The notes under the pieces are model-generated. The model was not told where the DNA came from, did not search any database, and saw nothing but the letters and a program-made list of their open reading frames with translations. Of a stretch of 43,103 bases of DNA, positions 608-42,282 are shown in pieces. The first letter of the stretch is position 1; each line of letters starts with the position of its first letter. Origin of the DNA: a virus; UHGV virus genome UHGV-0195171; one strand, written 5' to 3'. The position numbers were made by a program, and so were the translations under genes.

Positions 608-1036
608 ACACCCATCAACGACGCACTAACCACGCGGCAGTTGTTCAGAAACAGTTCTGACAGCCCGGAAAGACGGGCACGAATTCTTCGGGTCGCCGAA
701 AGTACGATGGCATGCGGGAAAGACTGCAACCGGCGTATGGCACATGCGTCGAAGCGGTCCGGGGGCTCCTTGGTACATGGCCCAGCGGGTAGCCGGAATG
801 TGCAAGCCAGGTGTCCAGGCACGACAGGCGATTCACCATCGTGGCGGTACGGTGTGACTCCCGGGAAGAGTCCGGGATACAACATGAGAGCGCACTTCAT
901 TTTTATCAGTTATGGCGATGTTGTTAAATCAAAAGGGCGGAGTGCGCTCCCAGTTGTAAAGAATCACGTAGCCAGCGTGGTACCAGAGAAAATTGCTGTA
1001 TGTAGTCTTGGCCCGGGCGCCCCGGGCATTTTTTTA
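608..1036 (+). ncRNA. GC-rich structured leader or candidate noncoding RNA; identity unknown
   Basis: About 430 nt, visibly more GC-rich than its flanks, starting at the pL-like promoter and ending at a strong terminator. Contains several short perfect hairpins (663-678 GCCCG-GAAAGA-CGGGC; 860-876 CCCGG-GAAGAGT-CCGGG). The only long ORF (578-1045) starts with TTG inside the -35 box and has an R/G/S/P-rich composition typical of noncoding GC-rich DNA. Confidence 0.3.
1011..1035 (+). terminator. rho-independent terminator (tL1-like)
   Basis: gcccggg-cgc-cccgggc hairpin followed by attttttt. Confidence 0.6.
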
Positions 1037-1099
1037 ACACAGTGACGGTTTTACCGTTGTGCCTGAGTCCCCGAACGGAGAGGCCAAACCCGCAACGTG

Positions 1100-1345
1100 A
1101 CACCAGGGAAAGACCGGAGGAAGTACAACGCCTGACCAGCGTCAACCTGAGCATGACCAGCTCTGGCACCGGGGAAGACCGGAAAAGGAAAGACCAATGG
1201 GCCTAACCAGCCTGACAGCCGGGAAAGACCGGCACCCTTTAGATGGCAAAAGGCCCGCACAAGGCGGGCCAGTTACCCCGGGCGGCGACCAAACCACCCA
1301 GATTCCGTAGGGGACCAACCCTACGGAGAGGAAAGACCAATGCCG
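1100..1345 (+). repeat. cluster of GGAAAGACC-type motifs in small hairpins within the early-left leader
   Basis: GGGAAAGACC 1106-1115; CCGG-GGAAGA-CCGG 1169-1182; AGGAAAGACCAATG 1186-1199; GCCGG-GAAAGA-CCGGC 1218-1233; GAGAGGAAAGACCAATG 1326-1342. Two further 7-bp-stem hairpins at 1252-1270 and 1305-1326. About 10 GGA triplets fall within 245 nt. Confidence 0.6.
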
Positions 1346-1394
1346 ACAGAATCAACACTGATCGGCTCTGAGTATACATCAACAAGGAGTCGCT

Positions 1395-1718
1395 ATGGAA
1401 GCGCTTACCATCCCAGTAACAATCTACGTTATGGCAACAACCAATCCATATCTACCAACGTCTTATCACTCATTCACCTGTGACATGTCACAACAATACC
1501 CTGATCTGTATGTCCTCGTTACTACCAAAACGATAGAGGTTGCCATTCCGGCTTTAGAGCCAATCGACATTATTGGTATGCAGGTTAATGCCCTTCGTGC
1601 GAAGAAAGAGAAAATCTCTGCCGAAGCTAAGAAGGAGCTGGGTGTTATTGAAGACCAGATTCAGCAGCTGCTGTGCATCGACCACTCTCCGATTGAAGAA
1701 AGCGACGTACCTTTTTGA
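1395..1718 (+). CDS. hypothetical early protein
   Basis: 107-aa ORF with an AAGGAG SD 6 nt upstream of the ATG. Confidence 0.6.
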   Translation: MEALTIPVTIYVMATTNPYLPTSYHSFTCDMSQQYPDLYVLVTTKTIEVAIPALEPIDIIGMQVNALRAKKEKISAEAKKELGVIEDQIQQLLCIDHSPIEESDVPF

Positions 1719-2000: not shown

Positions 2001-4130
2001 ATGACCATATACAACGGCTTATTTGAGCCCAAGAAATCGGCAATCAAAGACTGCGGTGCCGTGCAGCTGGCGATCGCCGTCGAAGCACCGAACAAGAAAG
2101 TCGCTGAAAGCATTATGACCGGAAAACTCTGGGAGTCTTACCCGGCGAACGGAGACAACTATTTCAAACCTAAGCTGTGGGAACACATTGAAGGCCAGCC
2201 ACTGCCGGCAGTCGGCCAGTTCGATGAACATTTCGCCCAGGAAAATACCTTTGATGGTGAAAAATGGGTGGCTAACAGCCAGGATGACGGCGCCACCGAG
2301 TTGCCGGCAGGCGATGAAGTTATCGATCTGATGACGGTATCCCCCAGGGAGCGTTTTGCTGCTGTATTACTCTTCAGCAAATTAGAGATAAACGGCCAGC
2401 TCTATTCGCAGGTTGTAGATTATCTTGATGATCTGGATAACCACAACGAATCCATAGAAGAGGATGACCGTTTTAATTTCAATGTGCTTTGCGCCCTGCA
2501 CAATAACGAACCAGTGAAACATATGCACGTGGAAGGTCTGAACAATCTGATCCATGGCATCTTCTCCCATTTTGAAAACCAGATGCCGGGTAAAGCGGCT
2601 ATTTCTCAATTTGTAAAACGCTGGCTTGAAAATCCCGGTAAACGCGAAGAAATGGTACCAGGCCAAAATTATGCCCCCAGCACTGATAACAACGTTAAAA
2701 TCGCGCCAAAGCGTGGTTATAAACATACCTACGCAACACTGGATCAGGAGATCGCTGTTGCGCTGCTCCCTATCTCTCCCGACGCGCCAGTATTATCAGG
2801 CAACCTTCGCGACGCGGAGAAAATCATTGCAGACGATCGTGAGGATTTTAAACGTTGGTCTGCATCACTGCATGTCACACCGAACATACTCAAATATGAC
2901 CGTGCCAGCATTTTCGGCGTAGTGCAGAACGTTCCGGCGAAAGATACTTACCATTTTCCGGAAAGTCTGCGCCGCCATATTACTTCATGGCTTGAAGCTA
3001 ACGGCCGCTTTGAAGAAGACGAAGGCTCATCACAAAAACAACCGACAGCGGAGCAAAATACCGCCTCAAACGTGGTCAAAAAAGAGGAAGTGCCGCCGCC
3101 GGTTGTAACCGATACCCAGGCCAAACAGGCGCGTGAGACGCTCAACGATATGGGCTATGGCGTATATGCCTCTGGTGAAGGAGCAGAGCCAGAAGAGAAG
3201 TTGAGTGAAAAAGTAAAAACTATCGTTCAGGACGTTGATCAGCTTGTTGAACGAATTAACCGAGAAGAGAACCTGCCGAAAGCTTCCGAAGTCGTCCAGA
3301 GCATTAACGAAATGCAGGAAACAGAACGTGACAATCTGGAACTATGGAAACGAGTTTTCAAAACTGATGAACGGTTTACTAAAGCCTTTACGCAGAACGG
3401 CGGCGGCACCTCGATCAATGGCACGTACCTAACGATGTTAGCAACACGTGAGTTTGGCTTGAAAGGGAGCGGCTGGGGCGTCGATATTCTGGAAGAACGC
3501 TTTGATGATGGCGCACCAATTACACGTACAGTAAAAGGAGCTGACGGTAATAATACATGGGAACTGATCCCTGATGGTAATGGTGGCTTCCTAACTGAAA
3601 AACACCATGTGATAAAAATTAGGCTGTGGTACCTGGTAAACGGTGTTCGTGGTGAAGAATACGCCTACGGATGTACCCCTTACATTTACGGCAGTAAATA
3701 CGGCCCTATCTGCGACGGCGAAGCTACTAAAAAATCACTAACTGACGCCACCAAAAAGGCATTATCCGGCCTCGGATTCAGCGGCGATATATTTATGGGG
3801 CTTTACGACAATCTGGAGTACCGCCAAAAGAACAAGGCCGAATTTGATCTTAAGAACGCCAGCGAAACCGCCGAAGATGCAGCGCGGTTGCGTCAGGAGT
3901 TCGATGACAAACTAACCCGCGTCGCCAATACACTAGCACATGGCGTAACAGTGAACGAAATAAACGGTGTGTTCTCCCCTATCGCACGTGAAATCGATGT
4001 TCACATTAAGGCCGCACAGGCCAACGGCGACAAGCAACATGAACGCTATCTTTCTGGTCGCCTGCGCCGCCTGATTGCCATTAAAGATGGTCGTCTCAAA
4101 GAACTGAATAAAGCCGAGGAGAAAGCATAA
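2001..4130 (+). CDS. Rad52/Sak/Erf-superfamily single-strand annealing protein with a roughly 440-aa N-terminal extension
   Basis: The C-terminal third carries the Rad52-like annealing signature (…YAYGCTPYIYGSKYG…EATKKSLTDATKKALSGLGFSGDIFMGLYDN…). Preceded by GAGGAAAGACCAATG. Located upstream of the gp157-like gene, as in phage recombination modules. Confidence 0.6.
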   Translation: MTIYNGLFEPKKSAIKDCGAVQLAIAVEAPNKKVAESIMTGKLWESYPANGDNYFKPKLWEHIEGQPLPAVGQFDEHFAQENTFDGEKWVANSQDDGATELPAGDEVIDLMTVSPRERFAAVLLFSKLEINGQLYSQVVDYLDDLDNHNESIEEDDRFNFNVLCALHNNEPVKHMHVEGLNNLIHGIFSHFENQMPGKAAISQFVKRWLENPGKREEMVPGQNYAPSTDNNVKIAPKRGYKHTYATLDQEIAVALLPISPDAPVLSGNLRDAEKIIADDREDFKRWSASLHVTPNILKYDRASIFGVVQNVPAKDTYHFPESLRRHITSWLEANGRFEEDEGSSQKQPTAEQNTASNVVKKEEVPPPVVTDTQAKQARETLNDMGYGVYASGEGAEPEEKLSEKVKTIVQDVDQLVERINREENLPKASEVVQSINEMQETERDNLELWKRVFKTDERFTKAFTQNGGGTSINGTYLTMLATREFGLKGSGWGVDILEERFDDGAPITRTVKGADGNNTWELIPDGNGGFLTEKHHVIKIRLWYLVNGVRGEEYAYGCTPYIYGSKYGPICDGEATKKSLTDATKKALSGLGFSGDIFMGLYDNLEYRQKNKAEFDLKNASETAEDAARLRQEFDDKLTRVANTLAHGVTVNEINGVFSPIAREIDVHIKAAQANGDKQHERYLSGRLRRLIAIKDGRLKELNKAEEKA

Positions 4131-4696
4131 TGACTTCCACAACTGCAATCGCTATTGCTGCTGATATGTCTAAACTCCAGGCGCTTCTGGAAAATGAAGA
4201 CGGTTCTGGTCTGTCAGCTGAAATGATCGCCGATACAATGGAGGGGCTCGAGCTGCAGCTCGGCGACAAACTCGACGCGGTATTCGTCCATGTTCGCAAC
4301 CTTGAAGGTCTGGCGAAAACCTGCGACGAAGAAGCCAAACGCCTGGCCGCCCGTAAAAAGTCATTCGAAGGTAAGATCATCAACCTGAAGAATTATGTGC
4401 TTCAGTGCCTGCTGGCCGCGGGGCAGGATACCGTTAAAACTGCAAAGAACACCTTCACCGCCCGCAAAGGTGCAATCAACGTGGTGATCGATAATGTCGA
4501 TTTACTTCCGGATGATTTGGTAACCGTTGAGACAGTGGTTACGCCGGACAAAAAGGCAATCAAAGAGGCTATCGAATCCTCGCAGGCGGCGGCTGCACAG
4601 ATTACTGCTGATGGCGGAGAGATACCGGGAGAACTGTTAAATCCAGTGCCGGGCGCTCACCTTGAGATTGGCGAACGTTCACTGCAGGTGCGCTGA
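4130..4696 (+). CDS. Gp157-family protein (Sipho_Gp157-like); recombination-module accessory
   Basis: 188 aa. Charged N-terminal half, then a …FTARKGAINVVIDNVDLLP…TPDKKAIKEAIE…AHLEIGERSLQVR pattern typical of Gp157 proteins found next to Sak/RecT. ATGA overlap with the upstream gene. Confidence 0.5.
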   Translation: MTSTTAIAIAADMSKLQALLENEDGSGLSAEMIADTMEGLELQLGDKLDAVFVHVRNLEGLAKTCDEEAKRLAARKKSFEGKIINLKNYVLQCLLAAGQDTVKTAKNTFTARKGAINVVIDNVDLLPDDLVTVETVVTPDKKAIKEAIESSQAAAAQITADGGEIPGELLNPVPGAHLEIGERSLQVR

Positions 4697-4697
4697 T

Positions 4698-4883
4698 ATG
4701 CTGAGACTATCTCTGAAAAAAGGTGATGCAGTTCATATCGTGTTACCGGATGGGACTAACGCAATTATCGAAGCGCTGGCCCGGTGTGAACTCGGTATGC
4801 ACTTCCCCCGCAATATCAAGATAACGCGTGAGGATGGTGCATTCCAACCGAAACAAAACCTGATTAAGCATAATCAGAAATAG
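4698..4883 (+). CDS. CsrA/RsmA-like small RNA-binding protein (carbon storage regulator family homolog)
   Basis: 61 aa from the ATG at 4698 (stop/start overlap TGAtATG). The N-terminus is MLRLSLKKGDAVHIV versus CsrA MLILTRRVGETLMIG. The core is LGMHFPRNIKITRED versus CsrA IGVNAPKEVSVHREE, including the conserved Arg at the position equivalent to CsrA R44. Confidence 0.5.
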   Translation: MLRLSLKKGDAVHIVLPDGTNAIIEALARCELGMHFPRNIKITREDGAFQPKQNLIKHNQK

Positions 4884-4932: not shown

Positions 4933-5127
4933 ATGCTACGTTGGCAACCAGGTGTAGTTTTACTTTCTGAATTCGATATCAAAATTGGCAGGCTATCAGC
5001 CAGCGTTAGAAAAAGGACTCTGACCCAGTCCGATATCCATATCGCTTGTGATACAGCTGACAACGCAATAGCCCGGCTTATGAGGAAAGACCATGACCAG
5101 AGAAAACGATCTCCTGACCGACGATGA
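4933..5127 (+). CDS. hypothetical small protein
   Basis: 64-aa ORF from the ATG at 4933 with a GGAGA SD. It overlaps the start of the next gene by 35 nt, so it is uncertain. Confidence 0.3.
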   Translation: MLRWQPGVVLLSEFDIKIGRLSASVRKRTLTQSDIHIACDTADNAIARLMRKDHDQRKRSPDRR

Positions 5128-5317
5128 ACTGATAGAATTGACCGGATACCGATTTCCTTCTAAGCAGTGCTCGGCTTTAGCTAAATCCGGTATTTCGTTT
5201 GTTAAACGTCGGGACGGCCGGCCTCGCGTGACATGGACACATGTGAATGCAGCGCTATTCGGAGACAGAAAAATAGTTGCTGACGAAGAAGAAAAACCAA
5301 ACTTTGATGCTATTTAA
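5093..5317 (+). CDS. DUF4224-type excisionase-like protein (putative Xis)
   Basis: 74 aa with LTDDELIELTGYRFPSKQCSALAKSGISFVKR…, directly upstream of int. Preceded by GAGGAAAGACCATG. Confidence 0.55.
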   Translation: MTRENDLLTDDELIELTGYRFPSKQCSALAKSGISFVKRRDGRPRVTWTHVNAALFGDRKIVADEEEKPNFDAI

Positions 5318-22013: not shown

Positions 22014-22385
22014 TTACGCTTCCTCTGGTTTTGTTTCAGTAAGCATAGTTGCGCCCATGTAATTTAATGAGCCGGGGGCTGCCCCATGTTCCTGCTGGAG
22101 CAGAGAATTACGTGTAGCAAGAAAATCCTTTGTCGCTTCTTCTGCTACCGGCGCGGTGGCTAGCAGTTTTTCCAAATCTTCCTGCTGCGCCTTCATTTCT
22201 TTCTGCTTTTCAATGCCCGCGTAGACATCCTTTAACGCTATATCAAGCAGGCTACGCACCAGTTCGGGGATAGACGGCGCAGCGCCGTAAGGAGAACGCG
22301 CCCGCTCTTCACTCTGGATAATTTCCAGTGCTTCGCGTTGTGCGTAGGTTAAAAGGATCGGTTTGGTTTTGGTCAGCTGATTCAT
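22014..22385 (-). CDS. hypothetical virion-module protein (123 aa)
   Basis: ORF with an AGGAGGAAAGACCATG initiation region. Its SD lies inside a perfect 11-bp hairpin. Confidence 0.55.
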   Translation of the reverse strand: MNQLTKTKPILLTYAQREALEIIQSEERARSPYGAAPSIPELVRSLLDIALKDVYAGIEKQKEMKAQQEDLEKLLATAPVAEEATKDFLATRNSLLQQEHGAAPGSLNYMGATMLTETKPEEA

Positions 22386-22388
22386 GGT

Positions 22389-22419
22389 CTTTCCTCCTGT
22401 TTGGGTTTCAGGAGGAAAG
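22389..22419 (-). promoter_or_regulatory. SD-sequestering hairpin upstream of the 123-aa gene
   Basis: The minus-strand mRNA reads CTTTCCTCCTG-aaacccaaa-CAGGAGGAAAG-acc-ATG: a perfect 11-bp inverted repeat whose 3' arm is the SD. Confidence 0.5.
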
Positions 22420-38980: not shown

Positions 38981-39631
38981 TCATGCCCTCGTTTTTTCTG
39001 AGTTGGCGTAATAGCGGGGATCCACGCTGGTCAGTGTGAAATGCGGCACTGGCATGTCGTCATGCCGAATAATTCCGACGTGATTCGATGCGAGCATTGT
39101 CGAGATACGTTTTTGCAGATCACGTAAGGTGATCTCAGCATCAGGATGATGTTTTTTGATGGCTGAAAGAATGTTCTGATACGACAGTGTTTTACCCTTC
39201 ATCAGCGCAACCAGCTGCTGGGCGGAAACTTCATCGATGGTGCTATTCAGGGGTTTAATACTCTCCAGCAGCAGGCGATGCCGGCCAATGCTGCCGACAC
39301 GCTGGCCAGTTTTTTTATCAAAATGCTCATTTGGTCCAGCAGACCAGACGGTAGCACCCTCGCTGAGCCGTACAGTTTTTTCACCCTTGTAATAAATCAC
39401 GGTGCCGACATGTGTTTTACGACGGCGGCTAGATACAGCGGGCGCAGCAGTTTCACGTTTTACCGGTTTTTTCGGGGTGAGCCCCGGAACTGGTACTGGC
39501 CGCGGGGCAGCGACGAACACAGAACGGCTACGCGCACGGGCGCCGGCGTTCATGCGCCACAGAATTACGGGGATCCAGTTACAGCCATCGTCTGGATTAA
39601 CTGGTTTTGGGTAATTTAAATTCGTGGTCAT
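38981..39631 (-). CDS. hypothetical protein (216 aa)
   Basis: ORF preceded by CCGAGGAAAGACCTATG. Confidence 0.5.
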   Translation of the reverse strand: MTTNLNYPKPVNPDDGCNWIPVILWRMNAGARARSRSVFVAAPRPVPVPGLTPKKPVKRETAAPAVSSRRRKTHVGTVIYYKGEKTVRLSEGATVWSAGPNEHFDKKTGQRVGSIGRHRLLLESIKPLNSTIDEVSAQQLVALMKGKTLSYQNILSAIKKHHPDAEITLRDLQKRISTMLASNHVGIIRHDDMPVPHFTLTSVDPRYYANSEKTRA

Positions 39632-39669
39632 AGGTCTTTCCTCGGTTATATTGCGCTGGTCAGGCGCAG

Positions 39670-42040: not shown

Positions 42041-42262
42041 TCAGATCCCCAGCGTATCGGCCAGCTGGCGGCAAGCTATTTCATATTCTTTCTGGGTCAG
42101 ACCTAATTCCTGCAGTTCTGCCTTCCGCAGCTCGTAGCGTTCCCAGATCGTCAGCGCAGCAGCACGACGCTCCTCGAAAATCGATTCGATATCTTCCATC
42201 GGGACTTGCACCCCATTCCGGCGAAACCCGTTCCGCCAGGTGATGCGATCTTGTGTTCTCAT
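42041..42262 (-). CDS. hypothetical early protein (73 aa)
   Basis: ORF preceded by CCGAGGAAAGACCAATG. Confidence 0.5.
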   Translation of the reverse strand: MRTQDRITWRNGFRRNGVQVPMEDIESIFEERRAAALTIWERYELRKAELQELGLTQKEYEIACRQLADTLGI

Positions 42263-42282
42263 TGGTCTTTCCTCGGCACAGG

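Follow-up and report, generated by a model that had tools for sequence, protein, structure and literature searches.

What is the role of a phage leader in which a short motif recurs several times, partly inside small hairpins, when the same motif also stands on ribosome binding sites elsewhere in the genome? This question is raised by the segment at positions 1100-1345 of the virus genome UHGV-0195171, which we analyzed as a stretch of 43,103 nucleotides (nt), here called the window. The window comprises essentially a whole lambdoid temperate phage, and the segment falls within the long non-coding leader of its early-left operon on the plus strand. An earlier note, made from the letters of the DNA, had interpreted the segment as a sponge of the CsrB/RsmZ type for a CsrA-like protein. 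Our comparison of related loci suggests another composition: the segment appears to be a composite of a structured RNA on the minus strand and the plus-strand untranslated early-left leader. The minus-strand RNA, a predicted antisense small RNA of ~120 nt at 1243-1366, was recognized by a covariance model, by covariation and by its fold. Its existence is well supported by these comparative data, and it is previously undescribed; its mode of action is moderately supported. With moderate confidence we propose that this RNA pairs with a cassette at the start sites of several phage genes, and that the copies of the cassette in the leader are extra targets or decoys.

The comparison covers 49 viral loci, which encode a homolog of the gene at 1395-1718, and 10 prophages, one from Escherichia coli and nine from Raoultella, Enterobacter, Serratia, Escherichia whittamii and Rosenbergiella. 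Taken together, the homologous loci are of Klebsiella-type, E. coli, Serratia, Enterobacter, Raoultella and Rosenbergiella origin. Local folding of each variant revealed five conserved hairpins between 1218 and 1366, which have diverse stems and one-sided mismatches. A global plus-strand structure from RNAalifold, in which register shifts hid the local hairpins, was discarded and replaced by this analysis hairpin by hairpin. The stem-loop at 1304-1327 exists in more than 10 stem variants, and its plus-strand mismatches are all A·C, which is equivalent to G·U on the minus strand. For the second stem-loop, at 1278-1301, the minus-strand fold is the more stable one in 9/10 variants, with a difference of 2.6-8.9 kcal/mol; its G·U cells number 47, its A·C cells 0. 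Both have the loop UUGGUC on the minus strand and GACCAA on the plus strand. The same asymmetry is obtained with a loop-anchored test of these two hairpins, which uses ungapped arms and no model; the 27 distinct variants contain about 31 plus-strand A·C mismatches versus 2 G·U, both of the latter at outer positions. This asymmetry is local and does not reflect a mutation bias, since the GAAAGA hairpins further upstream in the leader show plus-strand G·U instead.

A covariance model built on the minus strand matches every related locus with 57-127 bits. A pattern scan for GACCAA-N9-14-GGAAAGACC in viral contigs gave 80 matches, of which 16 were real and most arose by chance. The pairing was evaluated in two sets, one with 29 distinct sequences (A9) and one with 25 distinct, partly different sequences (A11). 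Standard pairs account for 99.1% of the cells in A9 and for 99.4% in A11, and changes on both sides were found in 19/25 and 16/25 pairs, respectively. The covariation score was 0.512 in A9, compared with 0.231 after shuffling, and 0.599 in A11, compared with 0.259; in neither set was the observed score reached by any of 500 shuffles. When the 3' partner was slid along the alignment as a control, only 38-52% (A9) and 41-52% (A11) of the cells were paired. A direct count in A9 gave 60 minus-strand G·U cells versus a single A·C cell, and because of this imbalance pairing on the plus strand amounts to just 90.7%. An alignment fitted to a model is biased towards that model; the model-free loop-anchored test agrees with the result. 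The structure that these loci maintain is thus the one on the antisense strand. In the window itself the fold of the 124-nt minus-strand RNA is well defined: it has -69.9 kcal/mol (z = -7.6), and a single structure accounts for 60% of the ensemble. Over the region 1240-1400 the minus strand folds with -73.6 kcal/mol, versus -61.9 kcal/mol for the plus strand. In Rfam no family covering the antisense RNA was found, either at gathering thresholds (window) or at E values up to 10 (positions 450-1500).

Read from 5' to 3', the antisense RNA consists of a 5' hairpin, the single-stranded UUGGUCUUUCCUC, the stem-loops 1327-1304 and 1301-1278, a terminator hairpin at 1270-1252 and a U-run. This last hairpin has the features of an intrinsic terminator on the antisense strand: a GC-rich stem of 7 base pairs (bp) carries, in most lineages, a loop UUCG, UCCG or UACG closed by C-G. 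The stem covaries (GGCCCGC, AGCCCAC, ACCCGC, ACCCAC), and the tail is U5-U7 across lineages and U4 in the window. At the other end all true homologs have a -10 box (TATAAT, TATACT, TATATA or TATAAA), which precedes the seed GGTCTTTCC by 32-42 nt, or by 55 nt in one insertion class. The box often has a TGn extension, and it is preserved despite indels between it and the Shine-Dalgarno sequence of the gene. The candidate in the window is TATACT at 1371-1376 on the minus strand, with a predicted start near 1364. The antisense RNA is presumably transcribed from a weak or extended -10 promoter of its own. Next to this end, a hairpin at 1342-1366 (plus strand) sits directly upstream of the true Shine-Dalgarno sequence AAGGAG (1384-1389) of the gene at 1395-1718, and its stem covaries as well (CAGAGCCG/CGGCTCTG, GGAGCT/AGCTCC, GGCACC/GGTGCC). 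Because one class of sequences has G·U on the plus strand, this hairpin possibly belongs to the plus strand and merely shares its position with the 5' end of the antisense RNA.

Of the two stem-loops, one has an invariant UUGGUC loop and the other a nearly invariant one. On the 5' side of both, the sequence reads (C/U)(A/G)U(U/C)GGUCUUUCCU; GGUCUUUCC is invariant in 29/29 sequences, and the same holds for GGTCTTTCC in 29/29 distinct homologs. Seed and UUGGUC loops are invariant or nearly invariant in the elements of Klebsiella-type, E. coli, Serratia, Enterobacter and Rosenbergiella origin. The single-stranded UUGGUCUUUCCUC is the exact complement of the cassette GAGGAAAGACCAA, which is found at the starts of an exonuclease-like gene (exo), an excisionase-like gene (xis) and three more genes, and which is also repeated in the plus-strand leader. 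UUGGUC, the complement of the 3' half of this cassette, occurs three times in the antisense RNA, two of them in loops.

The cassettes stand 1-2 nt before five real gene starts, namely exo at 2001, xis at 5093 and the minus-strand starts at 22385, 39631 and 42262. The one of exo (2001-4130, plus strand) reads GAGGAAAGACCAATG and covers 1991-1999; that of xis (5093-5317, plus strand) covers 5084-5092. On the minus strand they lie at 22386-22394 (gene 22014-22385), at 39633-39641 (gene 38981-39631, phrog_4183), where the cassette comes after CCTGACCAGC, and at 42264-42272 (gene 42041-42262, phrog_2465, past a cII-like gene); the last of these is present in all related loci. Three of the five start cassettes follow CCTGACCAGC or a one-mismatch variant of it, and CCTGACCAGC recurs in the leader. 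The 9-mer GGAAAGACC is kept at exo, xis and other starts despite protein identities of 37-50%, always on the sense strand and at a varying distance from the ATG. For exo, the cassette is kept at the gene start in relatives with a protein that is only 37-57% identical, and start cassettes are conserved in the Serratia, Rosenbergiella and E. coli relatives. In the related loci each small gene inserted between gp107 (the gene at 1395-1718) and exo adds one cassette, as if genes were swapped there.

A duplex scan of the seed region against the whole window returned the cassette among the best trans sites. Six of the 12 best sites carry it, i.e. the five real gene starts and the leader copy at 1187, and pairing at these six is contiguous, with -25.7 to -31.4 kcal/mol versus a background of -12 ± 3.8 kcal/mol. 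The UUGGUC loops have matches in the many GACCA sequences of the leader, among them the TGACCAGC repeats, and the loops of the leader GAAAGA hairpins are complementary to UCUUUC in the seed. The antisense RNA was present in 55/55 loci in which the exo homolog and the DNA upstream of it are included.

These findings are consistent with a mechanism in which the antisense RNA pairs, via its seed and the two UUGGUC loops, with GGAAAGACCAA. In cis it would pair with the leader that it overlaps. In trans it would pair with the cassette-bearing start sites and cover their Shine-Dalgarno sequences, and would thereby repress exo, xis and the remaining genes, e.g. in a lysogen. More speculatively, the extra leader copies, some of them in GAAAGA loops, could be further target sites on the nascent leader, where they might act as operator-like sites favouring early termination. 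Alternatively they might be decoys, which soak up the antisense RNA once the early-left promoter fires; this version retains part of the idea in the earlier note, with an RNA in place of the protein. A more far-reaching proposal is that the antisense RNA, with its three UUGGUC modules and its anti-Shine-Dalgarno seed, controls via GGAAAGACCAA a phage-wide set of genes (recombination, excision, replication-region and one late gene), and that the leader array is the sponge or operator which flips the system when the promoter fires. This we regard as possible, albeit rather doubtful.

Several observations weigh against the proposed pairing, or against the RNA itself. The antisense RNA, including its transcript and ends, is predicted from sequence comparison. 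Its U-run in the window is merely 4 long, its promoter has no -35 element, a generic promoter scan reports none at this site, and the window's own -10 box has no correctly spaced TGn. The UUGGUC part of the seed is not exposed in the fold of the window sequence, where the 5' hairpin conceals it. Moreover, any antisense RNA would by its nature be complementary to the leader copy that it overlaps. Seed and cassette are both invariant and hence show no covariation with each other, and none was found between their flanks either; in two loci (L048, L056) the seed reads CCGAT and the cassettes mostly CCAAT. The variants of the hairpin at 1218-1233 assign it to neither strand. Furthermore, antisense RNA, cassette and a small protein of the operon always occur together in one syntenic phage group, so that their co-occurrence cannot single out the RNA or the protein as the partner of the motif.

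On the plus strand, the segment is characterized by its motif array. GGRAAGAC occurs five times in 1100-1345 versus 0.06 expected from dinucleotide shuffles (0/2000 reach five), and the five copies described in the earlier note are therefore real: four are exact GGAAAGACC and one is GGGAAGACC, at 1107, 1172, 1187, 1222 and 1330. Over the whole window GGAAAGAC is found in 12 copies versus 1.17 expected, 12/12 on the sense strand of the local genes, and at least five of them stand 1-6 nt ahead of a start codon. GACC occurs nine times in the segment (3.1 expected) and GACCA six times (0.84 expected); the segment is also very T-poor, with 21 T among 246 bases. The excess of GGA triplets, which had been part of the same claim, disappeared on closer inspection. 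Ten GGA compare with 8.97 expected from the local dinucleotides, 771/2000 shuffles reach ten, and an excess appears just against the whole-window rate of 2.7.

The four hairpins to which the earlier note had drawn attention all exist. CCGG-GGAAGA-CCGG at 1169-1182 and GCCGG-GAAAGA-CCGGC at 1218-1233, the latter with a motif copy in its loop, are listed on the plus strand, and their variants give mixed strand signals. The hairpin at 1218-1233 was found in 40 of the leader sequences; one double change preserves a pair (GTCGG/CCGAC, locus L059) and three variants amount to plus-strand A·C. The other two, at 1252-1270 (7 bp) and at 1305-1326 (8-9 bp; the core of the stem-loop 1304-1327), were correctly located; they fold as minus-strand RNA carrying the exact complement of the motif. 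Because the minus-strand RNA carries this complement, an RNA is better supported as the partner of the motif than a protein.

Two short open reading frames (ORFs), at 1197-1310 (37 amino acids, aa) and 1340-1483 (47 aa), exist as described. They are not genes, because the ATGs with which they begin, located after the motif copies at 1187 and 1330, lack conservation; in addition, indels of 1-3 nt break the frames. An Arg-rich ORF of 42 aa at 1243-1371 and a minus-strand ORF of 48 aa at 1239-1385 were rejected for unconserved ATGs and frame-breaking indels as well. The earlier note had named conservation in related phages, of the hairpins or only of the mini-ORFs, as the observation that would decide about its proposal; the hairpins are kept with compensatory changes and the mini-ORFs are not. 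Its general view of the segment as a regulatory RNA region holds, in that the region is conserved, non-coding and packed with copies of a motif which also stands on ribosome binding sites.

The copy at 1330-1338 (plus strand), the complement of which is the seed of the antisense RNA, is no real start site; the ATG after the motif is lost in many relatives (AACG, AATAAC, GATAAC). This copy and the hairpin copy at 1218-1233 are nearly invariant across genera, and neither starts a conserved ORF. The antisense RNA, or else a factor binding to the plus strand, is the best explanation of why 1330-1338 is invariant although it is not a conserved start site.

The leader begins at an early-left (PL-like) sigma-70 promoter, TTGACC-17-TAATAT, which the promoter and terminator scan placed at 578-606 on the plus strand, downstream of a cI-like repressor gene (19-483; its terminator at 499-518). 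The promoter is kept at the same position in related loci, and it is followed by ~790 nt without a credible ORF and then by the gene at 1395-1718. All homologous loci have a motif-rich leader, with 5-7 motif copies in the 1.4 kilobases upstream in the main group and 2-3 copies in the most distant viral loci. Comparison of these loci revealed that the leader is a mosaic. The part 613-730 is highly conserved (88-96% identical across loci), 731-990 is an insertion that not all relatives have, 991-1047 with the terminator region is present in all, 1048-1185 is variable and absent from ~1/3 of the relatives (a leader class of 214-225 nt), and 1186-1394 is always present with ~76-78% identity. Past the terminator, the length classes extend from 214 to 359 nt and the motif copies from 3 to 5. 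The early-left leader as a whole has 3-5 copies of GGAAAGACC(AA) past the terminator and 2 ahead of it. A variable cassette block at 1107-1195 (plus strand) contains GGAAAGACC at 1107-1115 and 1187-1195, the hairpin at 1169-1182 and TGACCAGC at 1133-1140 and 1154-1161. Among homologs, a part of the segment that amounts to about one third (1100-1185) is therefore dispensable.

The conserved 5' module includes two hairpins with GAAAGA hexaloops at 663-728 (plus strand; 663-678 with GCCCG/CGGGC, 713-728 with TGCGG/CTGCA), which are motif copies upstream of the segment. Their variants (GTCCG/CGGGC, GTCTG/CAGGC, CTGCA, CCGTA; GAGG/CTTC in E. coli) contain non-Watson-Crick pairs that are all plus-strand G·U, in at least five variants, with zero A·C; this pattern identifies them as plus-strand structures. 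The hairpins of 613-730 sit between the promoter and a strong terminator that transcription of the operon must pass. This terminator belongs to a module at 918-1037 (plus strand; AUUGCUGUAUGUAGUCUU, stem 1011-1027 followed by T7), which ends a leader-derived small RNA and stands, throughout the relatives, downstream of the conserved 5' module and upstream of the motif array. The module has a sub-threshold match to RprA in Rfam (39 bits, E = 0.005), and blastn aligns it with the kilS locus of the E. coli K-12 Rac prophage (79% over 43 nt, 90% over 21 nt). Judged by this similarity, by its position in the leader and by the terminator, it is a relative of the Rac small RNA KilS, which has been verified by northern blot (PMC8175672); no model of KilS was encountered in Rfam. 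The comparison with KilS concerns this upstream module and not the antisense RNA, and the shared features are derivation from an early-left leader, the core AUUGCUGUGUGUAGUC and a terminator; the Rac prophage of E. coli K-12 has KilS but neither the GGAAAGACC array nor the antisense RNA. Pairing of the KilS-like seed (GUAGUCUUGG) with the motif was rejected as it comprises just 6 nt plus a bulge and fails in the window.

Two further parts of the leader deserve mention. The insertion at 731-990 (~260 nt, non-coding) also occurs in E. coli prophages and, without annotation, in Klebsiella phages that are not otherwise related. It is conserved block-wise, shows homology in its 3' part to the 5' end of KilS, and has no match in Rfam; it could be a mobile or structured RNA element. 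In L004, L053, L055 and related loci two small covarying hairpins follow directly past the KilS-like terminator. One of them has a GAAA tetraloop (CTTCAGT-GAAA-ACTGAAG, also CTTCGGT/ACCGAAG and CTCTGGT/ACCAGAG), which suggests a plus-strand structure in the place of 1040-1100 of the window, where the window sequence differs from its counterpart in these loci.

Could the motif be read by a protein rather than by an RNA? According to this explanation, which we consider quite unlikely, the leader is a CsrB/RsmZ-like platform or sponge, and its GGAAAGACC hairpins bind a protein of 61 aa that also binds this motif on the ribosome binding sites. The protein, called CsrA-like in the earlier note, is encoded at 4698-4883 on the plus strand (phrog_2482), and belongs to the same operon wherever a locus extends far enough, and the 5-7 motif repeats of the leader, partly in hairpin loops, recur on start sites. 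Five of 11 members of its family match Pfam CsrA at E values up to 1, the best of these weak full-length matches of single sequences having E = 0.005, and an Arg is invariant at the position of R44 of CsrA. However, the protein falls below threshold as a member of the CsrA family in every homology comparison. It scores 17.2 bits against PF02599 with a cut-off of 27, and a search of the PDB with its family profile yields no CsrA chain at E values up to 10; the best hit, an Ig-like Bap repeat (E = 3e-7), places it nearer to a repeat of biofilm-associated surface proteins than to CsrA. The probability in hhalign against a CsrA-family alignment (six CsrA/RsmA/RsmE sequences) is 4.6%. The AlphaFold monomer, which has four strands and a mean confidence (pLDDT) of 72, gives no Foldseek match at E values up to 0.001. 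A literature search for phage-encoded CsrA yielded nothing relevant. The leader itself fits no better: GGA is not enriched over local composition and is placed at the stem-loop junction rather than in the loop, Rfam gives no match, and two of the cited hairpins fold on the other strand. The protein may bind RNA and cannot be filed as CsrA. A decoy or extra-target role of the leader copies is possible; this protein is not supported as the partner. Its family is very small and confined to this phage group, with 7 clusters in 1.8 billion representatives (exhaustive search), just 5 near-identical matches in an indexed protein search and no confirmed locus in a genome scan. A protein of 948 aa (P0007) matches it in five stretches.

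Three further explanations were considered. GGAAAGACC could be a start or junction cassette (stop codon, CCAGC, spacer, GAGGAAAGACC, ATG), which is read by the ribosome or an unidentified factor or serves as a recombination linker; the leader array would then consist of empty cassettes from unequal recombination, and the antisense RNA would overlap one copy incidentally. TGACCAGC and GGAAAGACC indeed recur jointly at real gene junctions and in the leader, the small genes inserted between gp107 and exo each bring a cassette (at +358, +596, +674 and +912), the leader copy number varies with indels from 3 to 5, and a comparable unexplained motif exists in Cluster K mycobacteriophages. We nevertheless regard this explanation as unlikely: the near-invariant copies at 1330-1338 and 1218-1233 start no conserved ORF, and overlap alone is insufficient to account for three UUGGUC in the antisense RNA, two of them in loops. 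A simpler view, that the minus-strand hairpins are a mere terminator or insulator against antisense or convergent transcription, with no discrete small RNA, no trans targets and an independent motif array, draws on the missing -35 element and on lineages in which 1252-1270 is terminator-like on both strands (in Serratia UCUUUU on the plus strand, U7 on the minus strand). It leaves unexplained why two more stem-loops with invariant UUGGUC loops are kept by compensatory and G·U changes, and why the -10 box has been preserved at a distance of 32-42 nt ahead of the seed, and is in our opinion very unlikely. Finally, the GAAAGA hairpins might be boxB-like nut sites for antitermination through the KilS-like terminator (1011-1036) and the hairpin at 1252-1270. 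The loops of lambda boxB are GAAGA or GAAAA, and the stems of 4-5 bp and purine-rich loops of the leader resemble them; two such hairpins also lie ahead of the terminator which operon expression has to pass. The leader loops, however, have six bases instead of five, no N-like arginine-rich ORF was found past the leader and no family match among the operon proteins, and a nut function cannot explain why the same 9-mer stands unpaired on start sites elsewhere, including late genes. We consider this last explanation highly improbable. Pairing of the antisense RNA with the start-site cassettes is the interpretation that we prefer.

The operon downstream of the leader starts with gp107 (1395-1718, plus strand, phrog_2479), which is followed by a small gene on the plus strand, by exo, by the Gp157 gene (4130-4696, plus strand), by the gene of the 61-aa protein and by xis, after which comes the integrase gene (int). 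The region is 97% identical to a record named Stenotrophomonas phage vB_SmeS_BUCT709. A search with positions 560-1394 of the window matched the leader in 1037/5426 complete E. coli genomes. Of the 1124 E. coli match places in this search, 221 lie on plasmids rather than chromosomes.

Should the pairing prove real, the translation of several phage genes that are not linked to each other would be governed by a single small RNA via a common ribosome-binding-site cassette, and the phage's own leader would be its target array or decoy, i.e. a compact RNA-only switch between lysogeny and induction. The element is common and conserved across Enterobacterales prophages, with the leader in about one fifth of the complete E. 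coli genomes and also in prophages of Klebsiella, Serratia, Enterobacter, Raoultella and Rosenbergiella, and it is unannotated. Even if the trans role fails, the comparison defines a new, strongly covarying small RNA family, which is absent from Rfam and for which a working covariance model is now available.

How does this system compare with known ones? With CsrB/RsmZ it has in common that a short purine-rich motif is present in many copies, partly in hairpin loops, and that this motif overlaps ribosome binding sites; it differs in that the conserved unit is a 9-mer, GGA is not enriched, Rfam gives no match and the protein partner fails the CsrA tests. Closer parallels come from cis-encoded antisense RNAs directed against a leader or start site, such as FinP/traJ of the F plasmid, sar/ant of P22 and OOP/cII of lambda. 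These RNAs consist of stem-loops followed by an intrinsic terminator, use recognition loops, and block translation or trigger cleavage. The RNA described here, as far as the sequence tells, is likewise a short RNA opposite a leader or start site, with stem-loops, recognition loops and a terminator, and would be expected to act in the same manner. Unlike in those systems, the sequence matched by its seed and its two loops is a cassette found at several gene starts, unlinked to one another, and in further leader copies; because of these matches a multi-gene regulon in trans is possible. No relationship to FinP, sar or OOP was found in sequence or in Rfam.

A second parallel is RNA immunity with repeated targets in a leader, as in the CI RNA of P4 (seqB versus seqA/seqC), the c4 RNA of P1/P7 and the CA RNA of N15. 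In these phages the immunity RNA is processed from the same strand as its targets. The common feature is a small phage RNA complementary to repeated short sites in an early leader; in P4, P1 and N15 pairing on the nascent RNA controls the downstream genes, and the same is proposed here. The differences are that the antisense RNA is encoded on the opposite strand, together with a -10 box of its own, and that ordinary ribosome binding sites are among its putative targets.

The cassette itself has a counterpart in the start-associated sequences (SAS) of Cluster K mycobacteriophages, the function and partner of which, 'RNA or protein', were left open (PMC3203893). Like the SAS, GGAAAGACC is an asymmetric motif with a Shine-Dalgarno core, which stands in one orientation just upstream of many starts across diverged genes (PMC3203893). 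The sequences are unrelated (GGGATAGGAGCCC in the SAS versus GGAAAGACC) and the hosts are different, so that GGAAAGACC compares with the SAS as a functional analogy only; a candidate complementary RNA and a leader array are found for GGAAAGACC. If the proposed pairing is true, the antisense RNA would be the first identified partner of a start-associated sequence, a class of motifs the function of which has been open since 2011 (PMC3203893).

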